23,228 nt of DNA from a plasmid: sequence record NZ_CP145108.1, one strand, 5' to 3'. Below the pieces are notes generated by a model, which did not search any database, was not told the origin of the DNA, and saw only the letters and a program-made list of their open reading frames with translations. The translations under genes and the position numbers were made by a program. The stretch's first letter is position 1, and every line of letters starts with the position of its first letter. Of this stretch, positions 9,314 through 23,184 are shown one piece after another.

Positions 9314-11377
9314 ATGGCAATATTCCACATGAGTTTTAGTAATATTAGTGCTGGTAAAGGACGCAGTGCGATTGCCAGTGCCGCTTATCGAAGTGGTGAA
9401 AAGCTATTTGATGATAAGGAAGGTCGCCACTATTTTTATGCCCGATCGATCATGCCAGAAAGCTTTATTTTGACGCCAAAAAATTCACCTGAATGGGCGA
9501 GTGATCGAGAGCAGTTGTGGAATGAAGTTGAAAAGAAAGATCGTAAATCAAACTCACGGTATGCAAAAGAGTTTAACGTGGCTTTACCGGTAGAATTAAG
9601 TGAATCCGAACAGAAAGAATTACTGACAAAATATGTGCAAGAAAATTTTGTTGATGAGGGCATGGTAGCCGACGTGGCAATTCATCGCGACCACCCAGAT
9701 AATCCGCACGCTCATGTGATGTTAACTAATCGGCCGTTTAATTCAGATGGAACATGGGGAATTAAGAGCAAAAAGCAATATATTTTAGATGAGAATGGCA
9801 ATAAAATGTATACCGGAACTAGCAAGTACCCTAAGAGTAGAAAGATACTGATGGTCGATTGGGATAAAAAAGAAAAAATAACTGAATGGCGGCACAATTG
9901 GGCGGCAAGTGTCAATCAGGCTTTAGAGCAAAAAAACATTCCTGATCGGATCAGTGAAAAATCATTTGTGGAACAGGGAATAGCTGACACACCAATGCAA
10001 CACGAGGGAATCAATAGCAAACGGCATGAAAGAAAGGCATTTAATCAACAAGTTAAGAACTATCGTAAGTCCAAAGCTGGCTATAAAAATATGCAGGAGA
10101 AAGTAGTTAATCGAGGCCACTTGGATAGCCTAAGTAAACACTTCTCGTTTAACGAGAAAAAAGTGGTCAAAGAGTTAAGCCACGAACTGAAAACTTATAT
10201 TAGTTTGGAAAGTTTAGATGATAAGCGGCGCATGCTATTTAATTGGAAAAACAGTACCTTAATTAAGCACGCTGTTGGTGAAGATATCACTAAGCAATTA
10301 TTGACGATTAACCAACAAGAAAGTTCACTAAAAAAAGCAGATGAACTCTTAAATAAAGTGGTTGATCGCACAACTAAAAAACTTTATCCAGAGCTTGATT
10401 TTGAACAGACAACCGCGGCTGAACAACGGGAATTGATTAAAGAAACTAATAGTGAACAAACGATTTTCAAAGGCAGTGAATTAAACGAACGTTTAATGAA
10501 TATTCGTGATGATTTATTGACCCGACAATTATTGACCTTTACCAAACGGCCATACGTTGGCTGGAAGTTATTAATGCAACAAGAAAAGGAAGTCAAAATC
10601 GAACTGAAATATACGCTGATGATTCATGACGATAACTTAGAAAGTCTAGAACACGTCGATCAAGGGTTACTAGAGAAATATTCACCAACCGAACAGCAAA
10701 AGATTACTCGCGCAGTCAAAGACCTACGGGCAATCATGGCCGTTAAGCAAGTCATTAAAACGCAATACCATGAAGTATTGAAAAGGGCCTTTCCCAAAGG
10801 CGATTTAGATGGATTGCCATTGATTAAACAGGAACAAGCCTATACAGCCGTGATGTACTATGATCCTGTTTTAAAGCCATGTCAGGCTGAAACAATTGAA
10901 CAGTGGCAAGCAAATCCACCACAGGTGTTCAGTCCCCAAGAACATCAACAAGGACTAGCTTATTTATCGGGACAGCTTAGCTTAGATCAGTTAGAAAATC
11001 ATCACTTACAACGGGTTTTAAAGCATGATGGCACTAAACAACTCTTTTTGGGTGAATGCAAAGCCGATCCGACGATTAAGAACAGTCAGATCGAGAAAAT
11101 CCAAAAGCAGTTAAAAGGGCAACAAGCCAAGGACGACCAGTATAGAAAAGTAAATATTGGACATTATCAACCGCTAAATTACAAGCCAGTTAGTCCAAGC
11201 TACTACTTAAAGACGGCCTTTAGTAACGCAATCATGACCGCCCTATATGCCCGTGATGAAGATTACGAACGGCAAAAACAGGCGCAAGGTTTAAAGGAGA
11301 CTGAGTGGGAAATGACGAAAAAGCAACGGCAACACCAAACTCGAAACCGGCATGAAGATGGGGGCATGCACTTGTAA
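9314..11377 (+). CDS. mobA: MobA/MobL-family relaxase
   Basis: [32 protein letters not shown]-terminus with the catalytic Tyr motif. HxDxxxPHAHVM histidine triad. Long coiled C-terminal domain. Confidence 0.9.
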
Positions 11378-11479: not shown

Positions 11480-11958
11480 AGCTGCCAGCCTTGTGTATGG
11501 TCTATCAAAGAGACCAGGTAAACAAAACCTTTAAGCCGGAACCCTATTTTGAACTAAATGCGGAAATTTTAGCTAATCAGCAAGAATTCGTCGCAAAATT
11601 AGACCCCTATCAGCGATTTAAAGACGAAACAGGGCTAATAACATTCATGCAAGCTAAACACGTTCAGAAAGGCTCACAGACTGGTTTAATCAAGGGCATT
11701 CAAAACAAGGCTAAAAAGCGTGCTAGTCCCCAACTATTCTCACTATCCAGTCTCCAGAGTGCCATGAATAAACGTTATCATGCCAGTGCCAGCCAGACTT
11801 TGGCGGCCATTCAGAGTTTATACGAAGACAAACTGCTCAGTTATCCCCGCACCGATTGTGCTTATATCACTGATGAAGAATTTGATTATTTAGTGGCTAA
11901 TCTGACGAAGTATCTGGGGTTGGTCTCTAAGAAGCTGTCCAAGATCTATGCTTTTTGA
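11480..11958 (+). pseudogene. type IA DNA topoisomerase (Topo III-like) internal fragment
   Basis: Contains LLSYPRTDCAYITDEEF, the active-site tyrosine block of type IA topoisomerases. Only about 155 codons are in frame. The 3' end abuts an IS. Confidence 0.55.
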
Positions 11959-11959
11959 T

Positions 11960-12800
11960 ATACTTCTATGTAAAAAGCGAGTTTAAGCTATGAAAAATTA
12001 TCCCAGCAATATTACTCGGCAACAATTTGAATTAATTCGACCAGCTTTAGAAAATTTTCGTAAGCGAACTAAGCCTCGAAAATATGACCTCTACGAGGTC
12101 TTCTGTGCGGTCCTATATGTCTTGAAAACCGGTTGCCAATGGCGTCAAGTCCCCGGTGATTTCCCAGAATGGCGGTCAGTTTACAACTATTACAAAATTT
12201 GGTCAACTAAAGCTGAGCCTACGGCTGATTCTTTATTGGAACAAGTTTTAAAAAAATTGTCATTGCTCGGCGAACTTACCAAGGACGTTCAGCTTTAACT
12301 TCCTTTATTATCGTTGACGCTCAGAGCGTCAAAAACACCGCTACTGCTGAAAACAAAGGTTACGACGCTGGTAAGAAAATCTCGGGGATTAAGCGCCATC
12401 TGGCAGTTGATATCAATGGCTTTCCGCAGGCCATTCACATGACGCGAGCGAACGTCTCTGATCGAGACGGGGCCAGTGCAATGATCGCTTTACATGCCAT
12501 GCATTTACGCCAGGTTCAAAATGTCTTAGTTGATGGTGGTTATTCAGGCGTTAATTTTCAGCTCGATGTAGCCAGTAATTTAAACGCAACCGTGCAGGTT
12601 GCGAAGCGCAATGAGTTGCATCGATTCGAAGTCATGCCCCAACGTTGGGTAGTCGAACGATCTTTTAGTTGGCTAGAGAATTGTCGGCGACTTTGGAAAA
12701 ATTGTGAGCGTCAATTAACCACCAGTCTGCAAATGGTCGTTTTAGCGTTTTTAGCACTATTACTTAAGAGATTTTAGACAGCTTCTAAGTATTTTGACAT
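11960..12800 (+). mobile_element. IS5-family (IS427/IS1031-like group) insertion sequence; boundaries approximate
   Basis: Contains a frameshifted transposase. The ends are inferred from the ORF limits and weak IR similarity only (atacttctatgtaaaa vs atacttagaagctgtctaaaa on the reverse complement). Confidence 0.5.
11990..12777 (+). CDS. IS5-family transposase expressed by programmed -1 frameshift
   Basis: orfA frame 2 (W..R/QWRQVPGDFP motif) ends at 12298. A_AAA_AAA slippery heptamer lies at 12250-12256. After a -1 shift, frame 1 runs on through KKIVIARR...FIIVDAQSVKNTATAENKGYDAGKKISGIKRHLAVD to the DDE C-terminus ending at 12777. Confidence 0.8.
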
Positions 12801-12957: not shown

Positions 12958-13116
12958 CGAACACCTGAATGTTTGTGTCTGTAATTCCCAGTAATTTAAG
13001 TGTATTATCTAGTTGAGACATCTATTCCTACCCCGCTTATCTTGAGTTTCGTCGCTTAAAGCATAGCACTAGGGAGGCTTAGATGCCTTTTTTTGTTATC
13101 AAAAAGGGCCTAGTAC
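12958..13116 (-). mobile_element. ISL3-family IS end remnant: terminal IR plus first 21 codons of the transposase
   Basis: Identical over about 150 bp to 23027-23174. Minus strand encodes [21 protein letters not shown], then loses frame. The copy at 23027 continues into an ISL3-type zinc-finger N-terminus. Confidence 0.65.
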
Positions 13117-13411
13117 TTTTGGAATGGAAATACTTTCCAACACCAAAAATTCTAGACCCAATGGTTCCACCACTAATCGTCAAGGTATCGTTCGCAATTT
13201 GCCAAGTGACACCTCCGTCAAGGGTGCCGCTGTTATTGTCCTCTGCTTGGTCTTGAGTGGCAATAGTTGTGATCGGTGATGTTTGGGTCGTGGAAGTGGG
13301 GCTGGTGGCAGCAAAAGCTGGCATTAGAACCCCTGTCAATAATAAAAATGAAGCCCCCACTGAAGCCGCTGCAATTATTAGTAATTGATTCAATTTATTC
13401 GTAAAAAACAA
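13079..13411 (-). pseudogene. secreted or surface protein gene, N-terminal part only, truncated by the ISL3 end
   Basis: Signal peptide (LIIAAASVGASFLLLTGVLMPAFA), then GVTWQIANDTLTISGGTI as in N-termini of LRR/BspA-type Gram-positive surface proteins. The last 7 codons and the stop come from IS sequence. Confidence 0.5.
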
Positions 13412-13658: not shown

Positions 13659-14462
13659 TTAATACCCCTCCGTTGTAAAGTACCAACGAACGTTGTCCCC
13701 ACTCTTAAGCTTCGTTAAGTTTGAAGCATGGTCAATAAATTTCTTGTTAACACTGAACATCCAACCGGAACCGGCCTTAACGTCATTTTCCTTGAGGCCG
13801 TTAATGCCGTTCACGTAAACGGAGGGGCCCGGAATATAACTAATCTTCAGGTTCGTTTGCTTTAAAATCGAAAACGCGTTGGCGCCCTTTTTAACGCGCA
13901 TCCGCTTCGAATAGAAAACTTTTTTGTATCCATCAACCGTTAAATGGATTTGAATTGTATTCTTAGCATTAGACGACTTTTTAGCCGCATGATGCGTATC
14001 CTGAACCACCTTGGTTTCTGCTTTGTGGTTAATTTTACCCAGCTTATCAGATTTAGGGGCATTTGACCGCTTAGTTTTAGCGACCTTGTTAGGACTTGCC
14101 TTTGCACTGGATCCGGTTGTCCGATTAGTTTTAGCGACCTTGTTAGGACTTGCCTTTGCACTGGATCCGGTTGTCCGATTAGGGCTTGTGCTTGATTGAG
14201 AACTAGCAGTTTGGGGCTTGTTGGCTGTTTTTTGAGCCCGCCTATCTGCTTTTGGTTTTGCTTTGCTTGCACCCTTTGCTTTTTGCTGGTGACTTGGCTG
14301 TTTAAGATGACTTGAACTGGTCGAACTTGAACTTGAAGAAGTCACTTGTTTAGAAGTTGTCGGCTTAGGGGCTGCGTCTCTCGATGAAATCACCTGTTGG
14401 GCACCAAAAGCGATTCCAATTGTGAGAATGAACGCAAGAATGAAGCCAATTGCTTTTTTCAT
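13659..14462 (-). CDS. N-terminally membrane-anchored protein with Ser/Thr/Lys-rich linker and C-terminal DUF4430-like domain
   Basis: N-terminal TM helix. Low-complexity basic linker with an 18-aa tandem repeat. C-terminal segment IHLTVDGYKK ... KKGANAFSILKQ ... YVNGINGLKENDVKAGSGWMFSVNKKFIDHASNLTKLKSGDNVRWYF has the DUF4430 pattern (related to the transcobalamin beta-domain). Confidence 0.65.
   Translation of the reverse strand: MKKAIGFILAFILTIGIAFGAQQVISSRDAAPKPTTSKQVTSSSSSSTSSSHLKQPSHQQKAKGASKAKPKADRRAQKTANKPQTASSQSSTSPNRTTGSSAKASPNKVAKTNRTTGSSAKASPNKVAKTKRSNAPKSDKLGKINHKAETKVVQDTHHAAKKSSNAKNTIQIHLTVDGYKKVFYSKRMRVKKGANAFSILKQTNLKISYIPGPSVYVNGINGLKENDVKAGSGWMFSVNKKFIDHASNLTKLKSGDNVRWYFTTEGY
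14071..14178. repeat. perfect tandem duplication, 2 x 54 bp
   Basis: ttagttttagcgaccttgttaggacttgcctttgcactggatccggttgtccga occurs at 14071 and again at 14125. It encodes NRTTGSSAKASPNKVAKT twice. Confidence 0.85.
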
Positions 14463-14496
14463 ATTGTTTTGTCACTTCTCACTCAAAATTTGGCGA

Positions 14497-15543
14497 TTAA
14501 TTAATCGTGTAAACTGAACGATTCTTTAAAGCAGCTTTATAAGCGGCAACCGCTAAATTTACCTGACCGACACCATAGAGCTGAGTAGCTGCGTTTTTAA
14601 TTGAACCGGATTTATTGACATAGGTCAGCATTGCATAAAGCGGCGTCCTAGTTTGACTTGTTTTCATCGCCGTGTTATTCACATATTTCTTCATGCCAAA
14701 ATCATTTGATAGGGCAATAATTGCTTCAGCGGTTGAATTGGCATTTGGCGTTGTTTTGTCATTAAACGTGTAGCCAAATGCACCACTGGGCTGCACAATA
14801 CCAGTAAGAAATTTTTGCCCCTTCAGCAAGCTGTCCTTGACGTTAGTTGTATTAACCTTTCCTCGAGCCAGACCGGTTAGAACCATGCTGGTCGTGTCGG
14901 CATCCCTAACTCCTTGTTGGTTATTATACGTCCAACCGTGATTATTTAATTGAGCTTTCACTAGCCGAGCACTCAAGCTTGCTTTGCTAAACTTCGCTCC
15001 CTTTGGCTGCTTGAACTTTGAGCTCATCGAAATGGCAATCAGCACTTGTGCCTGGGCACTTGTCGTTTGTTTGGAAACACTTGTCCGGTACAACTTGGTT
15101 ACCAGATTGATTCCCTTTTTGTGGCCATATGGCTTATAATCTCTAGCGTTGAGCCCCATCGCCTGAACGGCCATCACGGCATTGGCCATTGTTGCAGCAG
15201 GGGTTGTCTTTTTGATTACCAAGTTTTTTCGCAGCAACGTTTTTTCCTTGGTATTAAATTTATAACCGTTTCCCTTGAGCCCTAACAGAAAGTCAGAGTA
15301 CCCCGCAGCCGCACCAGTATCAGGATTGAGTTTCTTACTAAAAATAGAACTGCTTTGACCGGAAAGTCCGGTCTTATTTTCTTTAATCATCTTTTTGGCA
15401 TAGGAATAAGTACGGGCAATTCTGCTGTGAATGGTGCTGGTACTAGCCTTCCTAATTGACGCAGCGTTGGTAGTTGTTGAGAGCGTCAAAGCGGCGATAA
15501 CCAAAGTTGCAGAAGTCAAGACTGATTTTATATATTTATTCAT
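14497..15543 (-). CDS. secreted protein, tentatively alpha/alpha-toroid (prenyltransferase/squalene-oxidase-repeat-like) fold
   Basis: AAGGAG RBS. Signal peptide ending TTTNAAS. Repeated G(W/F)xY ... (D/N)(T/A)TSM(V/A)L(T/A)GL-type segments (NNHGWTYNNQQGVRDADTTSMVLTGL; SGAFGYTFNDKTTPNANSTAEAIIAL) are reminiscent of terpene-cyclase-like repeats. N-terminal 60 aa are paralogous to the N-terminus of the next gene. Confidence 0.45.
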   Translation of the reverse strand: MNKYIKSVLTSATLVIAALTLSTTTNAASIRKASTSTIHSRIARTYSYAKKMIKENKTGLSGQSSSIFSKKLNPDTGAAAGYSDFLLGLKGNGYKFNTKEKTLLRKNLVIKKTTPAATMANAVMAVQAMGLNARDYKPYGHKKGINLVTKLYRTSVSKQTTSAQAQVLIAISMSSKFKQPKGAKFSKASLSARLVKAQLNNHGWTYNNQQGVRDADTTSMVLTGLARGKVNTTNVKDSLLKGQKFLTGIVQPSGAFGYTFNDKTTPNANSTAEAIIALSNDFGMKKYVNNTAMKTSQTRTPLYAMLTYVNKSGSIKNAATQLYGVGQVNLAVAAYKAALKNRSVYTIN

Positions 15544-15630
15544 AGGTGTGATCTCCTTAGATAATGCATAAAAGTGGCTGGGGCCTCATTTCCCCCCAAC
15601 CACTTTGATATTTGATTGTTAGATGAAGAA

Positions 15631-17133
15631 TTACTTATTGTAGGTCATCGAAATTGAATCGCCATCTTTCAAAGTATAAACACCCATCGATGAACCAGGT
15701 TCGGTGCCATTAACTGAGTAGAGCCAGCCAGTCATCGTACCGGCCGGACCGGCGTTAAACCCATTGATCCCGGTAACATAAGCGGTCGCCCCGGATCCTG
15801 TATAGGTTAAAGCTAACCCTTTCTGTTGGGCAAAGGCTTGTAACGCATCAAACGCAGTGGCTCCCTTCTTAACTTTGACGCTGCCACTTGCGATGGTCGC
15901 CCCATCGGCATGAATACTAATAGTGGTTGTGATGGTTTTAGCATCGTTTGATGGCGTAACAGGATTTGTGGGTGCCACTGGCAAAGTTGGCGTGGCACTA
16001 GGTGAATTATTAGTAGTTGTGGTTGTCCCTGTGGCTGTCCCCGTCGTTGCCGTCGGCTTAGAGCTTGTCGTCGTTGTCGTAGTCGCTGTTGACCCTGAGT
16101 TAGTCGGTGGGGTACTCGTTGACGTCCCTGTGGTTGTGGCCGTAGGTGTGCTTGGACGAGTATTTTGGGAGCTCTTCTTGATCTTAGTAGCCAAGATGAG
16201 CTTCTTGTTAGCAGTGATGTAGCGGCCATTTGTAAGTTGCATCCGGTTGGAACGCCCATAGTTAACAACTTTTCTGACGCTTAATGACGCATTCTTTTTA
16301 ACGTGGCGCTTCTTGCTCGTTAAGTTAACCTTACCATACTCGTTGATTCCCTTAGGATTGATGACTTTAATGCGGGTCACCTTTGCGGAATAGTAGGCGT
16401 GGGCAAAATACTTTGAACCAGAAAGCGTATAACCGGTTTTGCCTGAATTCATGTCCTTTACTCGATAGATCGCATGGCCCTGTTTATTAGTTTGTTGGCT
16501 AATCACCAGAAACATTGGGCGATTAACTCGAGCTCGCTTTGGATAGGTCTTGATCAGACTTGATTTAGTAAAATTCGAGTTTCTATATAATTTAATGGTT
16601 GTCAGTGCATATACAACTGACCGCTGTCTTGCCTTTTTAACGGGCTTCTTGGAAACAGTCGGCTTACTTGTCGGCGAACTACTGGATGAAGAAGCAGGTG
16701 TCGCTGCTGAGGAACTCGCTGCAGTAGAAGAACTGGCAGGATTATTTGCATCCTTTACAATGTCAGCAACTAAATTCTTACCATTCACATTAGTTGGATC
16801 TTTGCCGATTGCCACCAAACCATTGACGGCAGAAACATCAGAGATCCCGTTTAACCCTTGACTGCCACCACTGAGAAAGTCGTTATTCTTAAGAATTGAT
16901 TTGTAAGCATATTGAGCCTGCAAATCAGTAATGCCGTTGTCCCCAAACACTAAACATGTGGCATCCCAAGCATCAATTTGGGACCCTCGTTGTGTGATCT
17001 CCGTTAACCCAGTGGAAATTGCCGAATTGACGTCTGATGCTGTATCAGCCCTGGCTGAATTACCACCACTGAAAAATATCAGAAAAATCCCTAATACAAT
17101 TGAAAGCCAATATAGAAATTGTTTTCTTTTCAC
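15631..17133 (-). CDS. secreted multidomain surface protein: N-terminal module, Ser/Thr-rich linkers, basic cell-wall-binding-like middle domain, C-terminal DUF4430-like domain
   Basis: GTG start with GGGGAG RBS. Signal peptide. Poly-S/T tracts. Lys/Arg-rich middle (RVKDMNSGKTGYTLSGSKYFAHAYY ...). C-terminus IHADGATIASGSVKVKKGATAFDALQ ... YVTGINGFNAGPAGTMTGWLYSVNGTEPGSSMGVYTLKDGDSISMTY matches the DUF4430 pattern. Confidence 0.7.
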   Translation of the reverse strand: MKRKQFLYWLSIVLGIFLIFFSGGNSARADTASDVNSAISTGLTEITQRGSQIDAWDATCLVFGDNGITDLQAQYAYKSILKNNDFLSGGSQGLNGISDVSAVNGLVAIGKDPTNVNGKNLVADIVKDANNPASSSTAASSSAATPASSSSSSPTSKPTVSKKPVKKARQRSVVYALTTIKLYRNSNFTKSSLIKTYPKRARVNRPMFLVISQQTNKQGHAIYRVKDMNSGKTGYTLSGSKYFAHAYYSAKVTRIKVINPKGINEYGKVNLTSKKRHVKKNASLSVRKVVNYGRSNRMQLTNGRYITANKKLILATKIKKSSQNTRPSTPTATTTGTSTSTPPTNSGSTATTTTTTSSKPTATTGTATGTTTTTNNSPSATPTLPVAPTNPVTPSNDAKTITTTISIHADGATIASGSVKVKKGATAFDALQAFAQQKGLALTYTGSGATAYVTGINGFNAGPAGTMTGWLYSVNGTEPGSSMGVYTLKDGDSISMTYNK

Positions 17134-17208
17134 TACTGAACGCTCCCCAAAACAAATTTAACGGTCGTTAACCGCTATTAATGCTGGACTGGTTAGACTT
17201 TCTGCAAC

Positions 17209-17241
17209 ACAAAAAAGCCTAGCTAGTACCCTAGCTAGAGC
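17209..17241 (-). terminator. intrinsic terminator-like hairpin inside the 5' leader; candidate riboswitch expression platform
   Basis: Minus strand reads ctagctag ggta ctagctag followed by gcTTTTTTgtg. It sits between the aptamer and the GTG start at 17133. Confidence 0.55.
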
Positions 17242-17353
17242 CATCTTCTATCATTAATAACTAACGTCCGACATTTTTGGGCAGACTAATCCCGGAAAGT
17301 TTATTATTAATTGACAAAGTCGACCCTAAGAAACTTTGCAATCAGTATAATAA

Positions 17354-17480
17354 GCGTCTCCTGACTTGATCTCATCCCCAAATGTCTTCTTCCCGGCTTT
17401 AGCCAGTGAGTTGCGACATTTCAGTCAATCTTACAGTAGCGAAGGGGCTGTAAAGGCTTTTCACCTTTTTCCTGTTCATT
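17354..17480 (-). ncRNA. cobalamin (AdoCbl-type) riboswitch aptamer
   Basis: Minus strand carries, in canonical order: AACAGGAAAAAGGUGAAAAGCC, CAGCCCCUUCGCUACUGUAAG, CACUGG, GGGAAG, and B12-box-like AAGUCAGGAGACGC. These match the conserved GGUGnAAnUCC / CnGCCCCCGCnACUGU / GCCACUG / GGGAAGGC / AGYCMGGAGAC blocks of the cobalamin riboswitch. The 3' end of the B12 box departs from CCUGCC. Confidence 0.7.
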
Positions 17481-17499: not shown

Positions 17500-17535
17500 A
17501 TTATAGCATGGCGCGCGTTTGTTTAGAAGGGGGCT
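17500..17535 (-). promoter_or_regulatory. candidate promoter for the riboswitch-led operon
   Basis: Minus strand has TGcTATAAT (extended -10, plus coordinates 17500-17508) with a weak TTCTAA -35 seventeen bp upstream. Confidence 0.4.
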
Positions 17536-17544
17536 ACGAAGTCC

Positions 17545-18396
17545 TTGTACATCTATCGGAAATACGCTTTTAAAATTCGCCAGATAGCCCCGCAATCATC
17601 CGCGCAATCTCGGGTTGACCTCAGTCGCATTCAGGCCTCACCACAAGTGCTGGGATTAATCCTCAGCTACTATGTGAACTATGGCATCTCCGCTGCCAAG
17701 ACTGCCGCGTTAATGTACGACATCCATGGCATCAAGATTTCCAAGCAAACCATTCTCAATTACGCACAAGCCGTGGCGGCCAATGTTCGACCCTTCCTGG
17801 ATAATTATCCGTATCAGCTTTCCAGCCAATTGGTGGGTGACGAAACTTATCTGCGCGTGAAAGGAAAATGGCACTATCTGTTCTACTTCTATGACGTGAA
17901 CAAAAAAATTATCCTGGCAGATTACGTGACCCCCAAGCGAACCACTGAATCAGCGTGCATCGCGATCTATCAAGTCCTCAAAAAGTATCAAGTGATTCCT
18001 GAGAACCTGCGGTTCACGGTTGACGATAATCCCATCTATCGAGTGGCCAGACTATATTATGCACATCAGGAAGGCATCAACTTCGACCTTAATATCGTTA
18101 AAGGCTTAACCAACGAAACCGAGGTGGCGAAGGAATATCGCCCCGCCAAGCAAACCATTGAACGCTTAAATCGCTCACTGAAAGCTAATTATCGCCCAAT
18201 GGGGGGCTTTAAGTCAGCCAGCGGCTCTATCACTTACGTGACGCTGTATTCACTCTGCCATAATTTTTTACGGCCCCATCAAAGTCTGGGATACCATCCA
18301 CCAGTTGAAGTTCCTGAATTAACGGGACTTACCCGCATGCCAGACAAGTGGTTGAGACTCATCAAACTCGCTCAAGAACAGCTACCAATTGCTTGA
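17545..18396 (+). CDS. DDE transposase, distant IS6-family-like
   Basis: Blockwise resemblance to IS26/IS257 Tnp: YGIS HTH region, VGDETYLRVKGKWHYLFYFYD (compare HMDETYVKVNGRWAYLYRAVD), FTVDDNP, QTIERLNRSLK, GFKS. Longer than typical IS6 Tnp. Start codon uncertain. High-GC gene. Confidence 0.55.
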   Translation: MYIYRKYAFKIRQIAPQSSAQSRVDLSRIQASPQVLGLILSYYVNYGISAAKTAALMYDIHGIKISKQTILNYAQAVAANVRPFLDNYPYQLSSQLVGDETYLRVKGKWHYLFYFYDVNKKIILADYVTPKRTTESACIAIYQVLKKYQVIPENLRFTVDDNPIYRVARLYYAHQEGINFDLNIVKGLTNETEVAKEYRPAKQTIERLNRSLKANYRPMGGFKSASGSITYVTLYSLCHNFLRPHQSLGYHPPVEVPELTGLTRMPDKWLRLIKLAQEQLPIA

Positions 18397-18804
18397 TTTT
18401 GGTAATTGGAGCCCGGTGGTTCTTTATCGTCAAATGGCGGTAGCGAACACTTGACAAGCCGAAAAGCCAATGGGTTAAACTTAAATGACCCGAGGCTTAT
18501 TTAAGTGGCCTTGATTTCGTCTAACCATCGCCTCGGCACCGCTGAGCCAACCCATTGGCCGGCTTGTCAGGTGCATTTGACGATTACGACCACGTAGTAG
18601 ACTGCAAACCTGAATGGAAACTATATTAGAATCTACTTTTTCATGGAACTTTGGACATTACCGATTTCCTAACGTTTATAGTTTAGCACTGGAAAACCCA
18701 AAAGGTGTCTGACAGCACTTGGTATTAGCCACCATACAAAAAATCCCCATTCAGTCCGAAAACTGATGAGGATCGTCACGCAAAACTTATTAATTTAACC
18801 ATGA

Positions 18805-18933
18805 TTACTTCTGTTGGCCTTTCAATACCGAATTCCAGAAAAGACGTGAATTCAAATCATCTTTCAAGGTTCCTGAACGGCGATTCTTTCTTTCAGTGGT
18901 TCTTGCAAATAAATTCTTCAAAGTCTTTGGCAT
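18805..18933 (-). CDS. small basic ORF of 42 aa with a strong Shine-Dalgarno sequence; function unknown
   Basis: Minus strand AAGGAGG 8 nt upstream of ATG (MPKTLKNLFARTTERKNRRSGTLKDDLNSRLFWNSVLKGQQK). Intergenic location between the IS6-like gene and the ECF operon. Confidence 0.3.
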   Translation of the reverse strand: MPKTLKNLFARTTERKNRRSGTLKDDLNSRLFWNSVLKGQQK

Positions 18934-19395
18934 AAAACATTCCTCCTTGGTCAATTCTATGAAGCTTATCAATCTTCTCTCTACTAAGTAGTATAGCGCT
19001 ACTGTCGACCAGGGAGATAGTAATATGCTTATAAAATTTACCAAAGCAAAGCCCCGACACGGATGACTTTTTCCGCCTCGGGATGTTGCTTGAAGGATGT
19101 TGCAGCTTTTGCTTTCAATGATTTTCAGAAAGTTATTTACGTGTTAACCACCTCGCTTGTTCGGATGAACCCGTATAAATGACAGCTTAGCAGGTCACGG
19201 TAAATTTAGTGTAAAAATGGTGTAAAAAGGCTGTACATAATATCCAAAAGGTGATAAATCAGTTCGCAAATTTCACCATTTAAAAACGCCTCAAAATAAT
19301 ACTAGCCACCACACAAGATATGCCGTTTACCACCCTTGGCAACGATGATATACTGTTGGAAGGGCTTACTAACCCTTAGAAAGTCGGGATTTTCC

Positions 19396-20367
19396 ATGAC
19401 ACACACCCCAATCAAGATGACGTTTTTTTCGCAGCTTCATCCAGTAGCGCTCACGCTGTACTTTACTGAGCTGATCGTCTGCCTCCTGCTGTTTAATCAC
19501 GTGGCGGTCGCGGTGGCTGAGTTCATCGCGCTCACGATCACAGCCACCTACTACCTTGGCGGCCGAAAGACGGCGCGCCAACTGAAATACGCCGTTTCAT
19601 TTCTATTAATGATTCTATTTTTCAATACGCTCCTCAATCAAAAGTTTCCGCCGATTCTTTGGCATTTCAAATGGGGCATTCTGACGTTCAAATTTTCGTA
19701 TCCGGCATTTCTGTACGGCATTGCGATGGCAATTGTCCTGATCGCAATGCTGTTTGTTTTTTCAGTCCTAAACGCGGTTCTGACCCCCAGCAAGCTGATC
19801 TACGTGTTCTCGCCGATTGTGCCCCGGCTGGCAGTACTGGTCACCATTTCGTTTACGCTGGTCACCAGCTTCACCGATAGGCTCAAACGGATTTTGCGCC
19901 TGCAAAAAACCCGCAACGTCGACGTGGTTAATGGATCATTGAAGACCCGCACCCAAAAGACGCTCCACATCTTCGAAATTCTTCTGCAGGACGCCCTGTC
20001 TTCTGCGATGGAAACCGCCAATTTAATGGACGCCCGCGGATTTGGCGCCGCCAAGCGGACCCACTACCGCTCGTATCACTGGCAGTTTAGTGACCTGCTG
20101 TTCATCACGATTGCCACCGTCATGCTAGTTGCAACTATCGGCGTCCGGATTCTTTCAATGGGCACCAGTCGTTCAGTCGCCAATTTCACCACCATTTTTA
20201 CGCCGGGCGATACTTGGCCCATCGTCGTCACGGCACTCCTATTCTTACTACCATTAATCTCAGAGGGGTCTATCGTTCATGCAAAAATTAGCTACCGTGA
20301 CCCATCTCACGTTCACCTATCCCGATCAATCAACCCCCGTTCTGGACGACGTCAACTTCACCATTGA
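19396..20367 (+). CDS. ecfT: ECF transporter transmembrane (T) component, CbiQ/EcfT family; start uncertain
   Basis: Multi-TM protein with the EcfT signature Ala-Arg-Gly region (ETANLMDARGFG). The longest ORF starts at 19336, the ATG at 19396 is used here, and 19420 is also possible. The C-terminal 30 codons overlap the ATPase gene. Confidence 0.7.
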   Translation: MTHTPIKMTFFSQLHPVALTLYFTELIVCLLLFNHVAVAVAEFIALTITATYYLGGRKTARQLKYAVSFLLMILFFNTLLNQKFPPILWHFKWGILTFKFSYPAFLYGIAMAIVLIAMLFVFSVLNAVLTPSKLIYVFSPIVPRLAVLVTISFTLVTSFTDRLKRILRLQKTRNVDVVNGSLKTRTQKTLHIFEILLQDALSSAMETANLMDARGFGAAKRTHYRSYHWQFSDLLFITIATVMLVATIGVRILSMGTSRSVANFTTIFTPGDTWPIVVTALLFLLPLISEGSIVHAKISYRDPSHVHLSRSINPRSGRRQLHH

Positions 20368-21950: not shown

Positions 21951-22661
21951 TTGAAACAATCTTCGTTACTCAACCGGTATCGGTTATTAATTGCGTTACT
22001 GTTAATGTTTATTTTTCTGCTATTCATTGTCTTATTGAAGGGAAAGCACTACCTATTATTTAGCTTTATGTGCCTAATCTGTAGCCTTTTACCCGCGTAC
22101 TGGCGCTTCGAACACGATCCAATCAGCACCCAAACGTTGATGTTTGTCGCCGTTTTGATCGCGTTGGCGGTTGCCACCCGGGTCCCACTGGGCGCCATTC
22201 CTGGTGTGCAGGGAGCCAGCTTCGTCGTAATTCTAAGCGGTGTCAGTCTCGGCCCGGAACTGGGCTTTATCACAGGATCTACCACGGCACTGGTTTCCAA
22301 CATGTTTATGGGTCAAGGACCATGGACGCCTTGGCAGATGGTCGCCTGGGGCTTAATGGGGTTAACCGCTGGCCTCTTCATGAAGGCCCGATTGTCCCAT
22401 AGTCTGATTTTTATGATCGTGTTTGCCTGCGTCTGGGGCTATTTGTTTGGCTGGATCATGGACCTCTGGTACGCCCTGGCCTACGTATCACCGCTGACCA
22501 TCAAGAGTTTTATCTTGGCTTTTGCGGCCAGTTTCTTTCCATTTGACACGTTCCACGCAGCATCCAATGCCTTTCTCATCGCGCTATTTTACAAACCATG
22601 GGAGAAGCTGTTTCACCGCTTAGTCACCAAATACAATATTTTACCGGATAAAAACCAATAG
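21951..22661 (+). CDS. ECF transporter substrate-specific (S) component
   Basis: 236-aa, six-TM small integral membrane protein immediately after ecfA (TTG start, GGGGTG RBS). General S-component architecture. Specificity cannot be assigned from sequence alone. Confidence 0.55.
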   Translation: MKQSSLLNRYRLLIALLLMFIFLLFIVLLKGKHYLLFSFMCLICSLLPAYWRFEHDPISTQTLMFVAVLIALAVATRVPLGAIPGVQGASFVVILSGVSLGPELGFITGSTTALVSNMFMGQGPWTPWQMVAWGLMGLTAGLFMKARLSHSLIFMIVFACVWGYLFGWIMDLWYALAYVSPLTIKSFILAFAASFFPFDTFHAASNAFLIALFYKPWEKLFHRLVTKYNILPDKNQ

Positions 22662-22890: not shown

Positions 22891-23184
22891 GTGAGCTTGT
22901 GTCCGTTAGGGTGCAACGTATTGTATCCACAGCTGGGACAGCGCCTGAGTGTGTAGGTAAGCTCTGCCTGGATGACCAAATACTTTTTGCGACCCGAGCC
23001 CCGACCATGAAATTCCTCACGAGTACCGAACACCTGAATGTTTGTGTCTGTAATTCCCAGTAATTTAAGTGTATTATCTAGTTGAGACATCTATTCCTAC
23101 CCCGCTTATCTTGAGTTTCGTCGCTTAAAGCATAGCACTAGGGAGGCTTAGATGCCTTTTTTTGTTATCAAAAAGTACTAGGCC
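22890..23184 (-). mobile_element. ISL3-family IS remnant: terminal IR plus N-terminal about 65 codons of the transposase
   Basis: Minus strand encodes [65 protein letters not shown] (ISL3-type N-terminal zinc-finger). The 23027-23174 stretch is identical to 12958-13105. The element is cut off internally at about 22890. Confidence 0.65.

Follow-up and report, generated by a model that had tools for sequence, protein, structure and literature searches.

In animals, vitamin B12 (cobalamin) is carried by transcobalamin, intrinsic factor and haptocorrin, which are soluble, receptor-recognised single chains. Bacterial surface proteins that likewise combine a toroid with an SLBB domain were predicted to bind extracellular B12 by Burroughs, Balaji, Iyer and Aravind (2007; PMC1796856). 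Verplaetse et al. (2019; 10.1101/864751) subsequently described an operon of L. sakei that encodes the S component, a fused A-A' ATPase and the T component of an energy-coupling factor (ECF) transporter, together with an exported beta-like protein (Lsa1839) and an alpha-like protein (Lsa1840). These two proteins were proposed to clamp a tetrapyrrole and to hand it to the S component, and the operon was tied by experiment to heme uptake (10.1101/864751). Here we describe a related arrangement in a 23,228-nucleotide stretch of plasmid DNA (sequence record NZ_CP145108.1), the whole of which is referred to as the window. Three genes for exported proteins, called genes 1 to 3, lie there behind a cobalamin riboswitch and next to divergently oriented genes for an ECF importer (Table 1). 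The locus is probably a plasmid-borne, B12-repressed corrinoid-capture module of the Gram-positive cell surface.

When compared by described layout, the window and L. sakei Lsa1836-1840 hold the same five parts, and both are from Lactobacillaceae. These parts are distributed over two divergent operons in the window and are gathered in one operon in about 40 of its relatives. The L. sakei genes likewise form one operon, which is linked to heme and for which no riboswitch has been described, whereas the exported proteins of the window are encoded in a riboswitch operon of their own that includes an extra beta protein with a DUF5776 module. There is also a likeness to the proteins of Burroughs et al., which are Gram-positive and consist of a signal peptide, a toroid and an SLBB/DUF4430 domain, as full-length orthologs of gene 1 share this fused architecture. 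In the window, however, the two halves are separate, and neither a riboswitch, nor an insert of DUF1542 plus DUF5776, nor linkage to ECF genes was described in that study (PMC1796856). Both folds of the animal carriers are present as well, but on separate polypeptides rather than on one chain. A sequence-only reading of this DNA had stated that no characterised Gram-positive system with such a layout was known. This statement must be withdrawn, given the prediction made in 2007 and the split alpha and beta proteins with an ECF transporter reported from L. sakei in 2019. Literature searches turned up no subsequent biochemistry of DUF4430 proteins, or of bacterial proteins resembling transcobalamin, apart from these two publications (PMC1796856; 10.1101/864751).

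A cobalamin-type riboswitch leader had been recognised from the letters alone, and its match to the Rfam covariance model RF00174 is well above the gathering score and full-length (model positions 1-189). The end coordinate originally assigned to the region, 17480, clipped the first 23 nucleotides of the aptamer. A B12 box, AAGTCAGGAGAC, is located near position 17367 within the aptamer. Immediately upstream lies a putative extended -10 promoter element, TGCTATAAT, and an element of the form TG(c/t)TATA(a/c)T occupies the same position in the leaders of seven species. The expression platform consists of an intrinsic terminator hairpin (free energy of -19.3 kcal/mol, z score of -3.87) followed by a U-tract. 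All three elements, namely the -10 element, the aptamer and the terminator, are kept in an alignment of leaders from the seven species, in which the terminator stem changes on both arms. Judged by its sequence, the leader thus looks like a functional B12 'off' switch that acts by transcription termination, where the direction of switching is the one expected from general riboswitch knowledge.

Table 1. Coordinates of the features discussed, numbered from the first nucleotide of the window.
Feature	Position	Strand	Basis and remarks
149-nt perfect direct repeat, left copy	12958..13106		IS1165/ISL3-related; repeat search and IS1165 annotation under matches
Gene 3	13659..14462	minus	267-aa short beta protein: N-terminal hydrophobic anchor/signal, long basic S/T-rich stalk, C-terminal DUF4430 (13674-13886)
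Gene 2	14497..15543	minus	348-aa secreted stand-alone alpha/alpha toroid ('alpha' half)
Gene 1	15631..17133	minus	500-aa exported protein: signal peptide, toroid remnant, S-rich linker, DUF5776, T-rich linker, DUF4430
DUF4430/transcobalamin-like beta (SLBB) domain of gene 1	15637..15864	minus	
DUF5776 module of gene 1 (SH3-like, GW-related)	16195..16395	minus	Pfam PF19087, E 1.9e-18, aa 247-313
Deletion junction in gene 1	16732..16746	minus	single leftover copy of direct repeat AATAATCC(T/G)GCCAG, peptide NNPAS
Expression platform: intrinsic terminator hairpin and U-tract	17208..17239	minus	terminator scan; between aptamer and GTG start of gene 1
Cobalamin riboswitch aptamer, RF00174	17336..17503	minus	Rfam, 72.4 bits vs gathering score 31.5, E 2e-16
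Extended -10 promoter element (putative)	17500..17508	minus	read from sequence; abuts upstream side of riboswitch
DDE (IS240/IS6-type) transposase segment, inserted or replaced	17545..19108	plus	transposase gene 17545-18396, Pfam DDE_Tnp_IS240
ECF T component, CbrV-like	19396..20367	plus	ORF; longest ORF start 19336; annotation of 99% identical L001 gene
Fused double ATPase A-A', CbrU-like, 554 aa	20279..21943	plus	two ABC_tran domains, E 1e-60
ECF S component, CbrT-like	21951..22661	plus	Pfam ECF-ribofla_trS and ECF_trnsprt
Remnant of second toroid gene, 69 codons	22681..22890	plus	after S component, cut by insertion sequence (IS) fragment; tblastn 42% over 66 aa
149-nt perfect direct repeat, right copy	23027..23175		repeat search

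The three open reading frames (ORFs) that follow the leader lie exactly where they had been placed on the minus strand, and the folds proposed for their products are borne out by domain searches and structure prediction. The predicted model of the gene 2 product is an all-helical toroid, in agreement with the alpha/alpha-toroid fold that had been suggested from its repeats. The C-terminal DUF4430 domains expected on the other two products both match Pfam PF14478 above its gathering threshold of 23.8 bits, with 56.0 bits for gene 3 (E of 5.4e-15) and 49.7 bits for gene 1 (E of 5e-13). The beta-grasp fold of DUF4430 superposes on the beta domain of transcobalamin. All short beta proteins, to which the gene 3 product belongs, begin with MKK and about 20 hydrophobic residues, and no lipobox was found in them, such that the gene 3 product may be anchored in the membrane by its N-terminal segment. 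Orthologs of gene 3 are located directly after the toroid gene in about 45 loci. The low-complexity stalk of the window copy carries a tandem 54-nucleotide duplication (14063-14170; 96% identical), which adds 18 residues relative to orthologs of 249 amino acids.

The unusual architecture of the gene 1 product is explained by comparison with its relatives. A homolog search with its first 135 amino acids yielded two matches and was uninformative, whereas a search with the whole protein exposed a deletion, as evident by the fact that the orthologs are 750-810 amino acids in length. Relative to the gene on plasmid pDH5 of Lentilactobacillus kefiri, gene 1 is without 843 nucleotides (281 codons) in frame, as established by blastn and by motif positions. 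The missing nucleotides sit between two copies of AATAATCC(T/G)GCCAG in the L. kefiri gene, and a single copy is left in the window. The lost part comprises most of an N-terminal toroid plus DUF1542-like helices, and the signal peptide, approximately four helices, the DUF5776 module and the beta domain are retained. Judged by these sequence comparisons, gene 1 is an internally deleted form of a gene for a protein of about 780 amino acids that lost its own toroid. A second 500-amino-acid form is present in another assembly (P0093).

To represent the intact protein, the full-length ortholog P0094 (784 amino acids, 98% identical) was modelled. Its predicted structure has a 12-helix N-terminal domain (amino acids 31-302) with predicted local distance difference test (pLDDT) values of 70-95, followed by a DUF1542-like helical segment, low-confidence linkers with DUF5776, and a well-predicted C-terminal beta domain. 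The N-terminal domain aligns to the gene 2 family with an hhalign probability of 94.7% (E of 6e-8). Because this domain is homologous to the gene 2 toroid and the same chain ends in a beta domain, the ancestral form of gene 1 would have carried both transcobalamin-like halves with a wall-binding spacer. The earlier view that the alpha and beta parts are encoded on separate polypeptides holds for the window, but does not extend to gene 1 as a native 500-amino-acid protein, since its full-length orthologs are fused. Attachment to the cell wall had been attributed to basic and S/T-rich linkers, but the SH3-like DUF5776 module identified by Pfam is the likelier element. DUF5776 is an SH3-related repeat found in the wall-binding regions of autolysins and endolysins, for which wall binding is putative (PMC12208459), and the module is the candidate wall-binding element of gene 1.

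Fusion and adjacency of the two domain types provide a further line of evidence. A profile of the gene 2 family was searched against 1.84 billion representative proteins and yielded 1384 relatives, 229 of them at E values of 1e-10 or below. A hidden Markov model (HMM) of the beta domain was then run on the 149 best matches, and 92 of these 149 distant toroid homologs carry at least one DUF4430-like domain in the same chain. From this 'Rosetta stone' evidence, toroid and beta domain are expected to act together. Since its distant homologs are mostly toroid-DUF4430 fusions, gene 2 is also assigned to the family described by Burroughs et al. (PMC1796856). Stand-alone toroids of this size form only two or three clusters, the nearest other one being from Pediococcus acidilactici, and the remaining homologs are large surface proteins with SLH, Big_2, LPXTG or MucBP elements. 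Where the two parts are encoded separately, they remain neighbours, with 47 distinct pairs in which a short beta gene adjoins the toroid gene.

A neighbouring ECF importer, which captured corrinoids had been suggested to feed, is present with its T component, fused ATPase and CbrT-like S component, and the linkage of toroid and beta genes to ECF genes is conserved in about 40 loci. The best match of the S component in the PDB is 6fnp_A, the S component of ECF-CbrT, with an E value of 1.8e-9 over 158 residues, which represents modest homology. The importer thus has the parts of a CbrTUV-type transporter, namely an S component homologous to CbrT, a dedicated T component and a duplicated ATPase, and its substrate specificity is predicted on this basis. 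The ECF region is 99.6% identical on plasmid pMF1298-5 of Lactiplantibacillus plantarum MF1298, where the authors named the genes CbrV, CbrU and CbrT and listed them among plasmid-borne B12 genes. CbrTUV is known as a cobalamin ECF transporter (Rodionov 2009). The ECF-CbrT transporter of L. delbrueckii transports cobalamin and cobinamide (Santos et al. 2018; PMC5997447). Unlike the importer of the window, it uses a shared ECF module, and no extracytoplasmic helpers have been described for it (PMC5997447).

A genome scan for homologous loci, whose parts were mapped by tblastn, revealed 58 loci, all of them in Lentilactobacillus, Levilactobacillus and Secundilactobacillus except for transfers into L. 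helveticus and L. kefiranofaciens. L. sakei is absent from these loci and from the top 150 matches of the toroid profile. Two arrangements can be distinguished. In type A (about 40 chromosomal loci), a single operon encodes the ECF T component, the fused A-A' ATPase, the S component, a toroid and a short beta protein, and in Levilactobacillus this operon adjoins the gene for PocR and the operon for a B12-dependent diol dehydratase (pdu). Type B (17 loci including the window, from about 10 species) consists of a B12 box or riboswitch, a long toroid-DUF5776-beta protein, a stand-alone toroid and, in some loci, a short beta protein. The B12 box is kept in 17 of 17 type-B loci, and Rfam reports a riboswitch in all type-B loci tested (the window, L001, L002 and L005). 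Many Lentilactobacillus species carry both types, and the window holds a type-B operon joined in divergent orientation to a type-A ECF operon.

Downstream of the S component, where a toroid gene is normally found, the window retains only a remnant of a second toroid gene. A full-length toroid paralog (53%) occupies this position in L002 and L010. In seven further loci (L014-L019 and L026), ECF genes 99-100% identical to those of the window lead directly into a chimeric toroid gene (89-90%) and the same short beta gene (98-99%), and the N-terminus of this chimeric toroid is that of the 69-codon remnant. The presence of a chimeric toroid after the S component in these loci shows that toroid paralogs have recombined.

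Several other observations were made among the relatives. On scaffold 24 of L. parafarraginis, a type-A operon and a type-B module (L013 and L033) adjoin on the chromosome near PocR and pduC, and this layout may resemble the source arrangement of the plasmid cassette. Matches to PocR occur in many loci, and in L007 (12871-13968) a PocR-type AraC regulator beside pdu carries a DUF4430 domain of its own. This regulator is of the intracellular SLBB sensor kind predicted by Burroughs et al., and is encoded beside an extracellular DUF4430 protein.

The operation of such a module can be outlined as follows. When intracellular cobalamin is low, the leader terminator would be read through and the three genes would be transcribed. 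The gene 1 product would associate with the wall via DUF5776 and display its SLBB/DUF4430 beta domain, the gene 2 product would be secreted as a free toroid, and the gene 3 product would be tethered to the membrane and hold out its beta domain on a long, flexible stalk. The analogy with transcobalamin, intrinsic factor and haptocorrin suggests that one corrinoid would be clamped between a toroid and a beta domain, here on separate polypeptides. The loaded complex would be kept near the membrane by the tethered beta protein, and the corrinoid would be passed to the CbrT-like S component and imported by the divergently encoded ECF transporter. We tentatively propose, at somewhat less than even chances, that the toroid and its tethered or wall-bound beta partners constitute a two-piece 'bacterial transcobalamin' that serves as an extracytoplasmic capture device for the ECF transporter, although independence from such proteins is a defining trait of ECF transporters.

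A number of observations weigh against the assignment of this locus to corrinoid capture. With regard to the toroid, its best structural matches are terpene cyclases, which score above transcobalamin. The Cobalamin_bind model has no match at E values up to 10 in any of 32 toroid family members, and sequence searches of the PDB with gene 2, both as a single sequence and as a profile, gave no match, transcobalamin, intrinsic factor and haptocorrin included. It is nonetheless highly improbable that the 348-amino-acid protein is an enzyme or lectin unrelated to B12, be it terpene cyclase/prenyltransferase-like, glycoside hydrolase-like or a 'fucose-binding lectin II'. Pfam searches with the 32 family members gave no lectin or hydrolase match, and marginal matches to Prenyltrans and SQHop_cyclase_C in only three of them. 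The catalytic motif of class II terpene cyclases is DxDD. The toroid alignment holds a conserved D-x-D-T-T (D214, D216, T217 and T218) without the third Asp of that motif, and in the absence of both DxDD and an above-threshold profile match, an identity of gene 2 as a class II terpene cyclase or prenyltransferase was rejected. Furthermore, the toroid is secreted, is always paired with a DUF4430 protein, and is encoded either behind a B12 riboswitch or within an ECF operon, and the predominance of DUF4430 fusions among its distant homologs also argues against a role unrelated to B12. The identity 'fucose-binding lectin II' (PA-IIL) was likewise rejected, as there is no lectin match in Pfam and the model is an all-helical toroid with no beta-sandwich. 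Orthologs of gene 2 (P0010, P0022, P0037 and others) are widely given this name in RefSeq and UniRef, which looks like a propagated mis-annotation.

A second group of adverse observations concerns the link between capture and import. ECF S components normally work without an extracytoplasmic binding protein. No second riboswitch was found upstream of the ECF operon of the window, even at a relaxed Rfam threshold, and Rfam found none before the type-A operon in the 10 loci tested. Matches to a B12-box regular expression upstream of the ECF T gene in four loci (L049, L056, L057 and L059) proved to be false positives, as no Rfam riboswitch is present there. Separately, the ECF-toroid-beta operon is closely followed by an adenosylcobalamin (AdoCbl) riboswitch (RF01482, 83.9 bits) in L059 of Levilactobacillus wangkuiensis (10669-10822), before another gene.

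The exported proteins might thus bind corrinoids without feeding the ECF transporter, either as a surface store or by competitive sequestration from neighbours in the manner of BtuG-type piracy. BtuG and its relatives in Bacteroides represent the same concept, as they are high-affinity corrinoid binders of the cell surface that feed a membrane transporter and are encoded behind a B12 riboswitch. Unlike the proteins of the window, BtuG has an unrelated beta-propeller fold and operates at a Gram-negative outer membrane with a TonB-dependent transporter. The lack of a riboswitch for the ECF operon would suit a store or sequestration role, as would the location of chromosomal type-B modules far from ECF genes (L005, L021, L023-L025 and L063) and the putative wall-binding DUF5776 module of gene 1 orthologs, which fits display better than delivery. 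We consider this explanation unlikely, however, since the same pair of toroid and short beta protein shares one operon with the ECF T, ATPase and S genes in about 40 loci. In addition, species with type-B modules also carry a type-A ECF operon elsewhere, which in L. parafarraginis is on the same scaffold (L013 and L033), and uptake genes under cobalamin riboswitches are typically repressed by B12.

The experimental results from L. sakei weigh in another direction. Deletion of lsa1836-1840 lowered the 57Fe-hemin content of cells 5- to 8-fold and overexpression raised it, and Lsa1839 and Lsa1840 were modelled as the beta and alpha halves of transcobalamin (10.1101/864751). By extension, the window could encode a system for scavenging heme or tetrapyrroles in general, with the alpha/beta clamp as the heme binder and the ECF transporter as the importer, and the fact that most ECF-linked type-A operons surveyed are without a B12 riboswitch would be compatible with this. 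Such a function is improbable for the present locus, where the operon for the exported proteins lies behind a cobalamin riboswitch, as it does behind a B12 box in every type-B relative. Type-A operons have PocR and the B12-dependent pdu operon as neighbours, the closest solved relative of the S component is the cobalamin transporter CbrT, and no heme-related gene was found in the window. Moreover, the effect in L. sakei was seen only at hemin concentrations of at least 5 uM, and the operon was auto-annotated as one for cobalamin transport (10.1101/864751). The context of the window, with its riboswitch and CbrT-like S component, and with pdu in its relatives, points to corrinoids rather than to the heme of the L. 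sakei system.

Finally, this plasmid copy may be impaired, both by the loss of the toroid from gene 1 and by a frameshift at the 3' end of the ECF T gene. A 1-nucleotide deletion near position 20265 (20260-20270) shortens a G-run from GAGGGGG to GAGGGG, and thereby swaps the last seven codons (VYRSCKN) for a tail of 32 residues whose coding region overlaps the ATPase gene. The extra G is present in every relative, and its loss here could reflect either a true mutation or an error in sequencing the homopolymer. The cassette might accordingly be in decay and no longer form a working system. The truncation of the toroid gene after the S component to 69 codons, the transposase segment that splits the two operons and the IS-derived 149-nucleotide repeats around the module could be viewed in the same light. 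We give little credence to this explanation. The deletion in gene 1 is in frame, leaves the signal peptide, DUF5776 and beta domain in place, and yields a form that recurs in P0093; the frameshift in the T gene touches only the extreme C-terminus. Several species carry copies that are 98-100% identical to genes 2 and 3, riboswitch, promoter, terminator, ATPase and S component of the window, all of which are intact.

The window as a whole is mosaic Lactobacillaceae plasmid DNA, with genes for a resolvase, a ParM-like partition protein, RepA, a zeta toxin and a MobA/MobL relaxase, and with several IS fragments. Near-identical segments are present on plasmids of L. kefiri, Levilactobacillus brevis, Lactobacillus kefiranofaciens and L. 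plantarum. The 10-kb B12 module is bracketed on both sides by the 149-nucleotide direct repeats, which suggests that the module is mobile or was assembled by recombination between IS remnants. The 1.56-kb transposase-bearing segment that separates the riboswitch operon from the ECF operon is missing in L. kefiri pDH5, and accompanies the ECF operon in plasmids of L. plantarum and L. brevis. Outside the operon, a 110-amino-acid ORF (13079-13411, minus strand) with a signal peptide and a T-rich segment, which is annotated as hypothetical in L. kefiri pDH5, starts within the 149-nucleotide repeat and looks like what is left, at the 5' end, of a truncated gene for a surface protein. The interval from the relaxase gene to the B12 module contains a topoisomerase gene fragment (11491-11958; 155 amino acids, matching Topoisom_bac positions 50-185) and an IS5-family transposase gene split into two ORFs (11990-12777).

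Relative to the literature found, the riboswitch-controlled type-B module and its toroid-DUF1542-DUF5776-beta first gene appear to be new, as do the wide occurrence of the pdu-adjacent type-A operon and the fusion statistics. The capture of B12 outside the membrane of Gram-positive bacteria is poorly understood, and ECF transporters are thought to need no binding proteins. For an equivalent system, the single experiment available implicated heme, whereas the regulation of this locus argues for corrinoids. With a riboswitch, a toroid, beta domains and a CbrT-like ECF transporter, the locus offers a compact, mobile and testable case. Plasmids spread it among lactobacilli of foods and kefir, with L. 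helveticus, L. kefiranofaciens and L. plantarum among them, and it may in this way shape competition for B12 in fermentations. The findings are also relevant to the proposal that the animal B12 carriers are of bacterial origin, an idea that is itself not new and to which the comparative evidence adds value. If the proposed two-piece arrangement is correct, corrinoids would be the primary substrate of the L. sakei 'heme' system, and the lactobacillus family would exemplify, in extant organisms, the unfused and the fused ancestral forms from which animal transcobalamin, intrinsic factor and haptocorrin were acquired.

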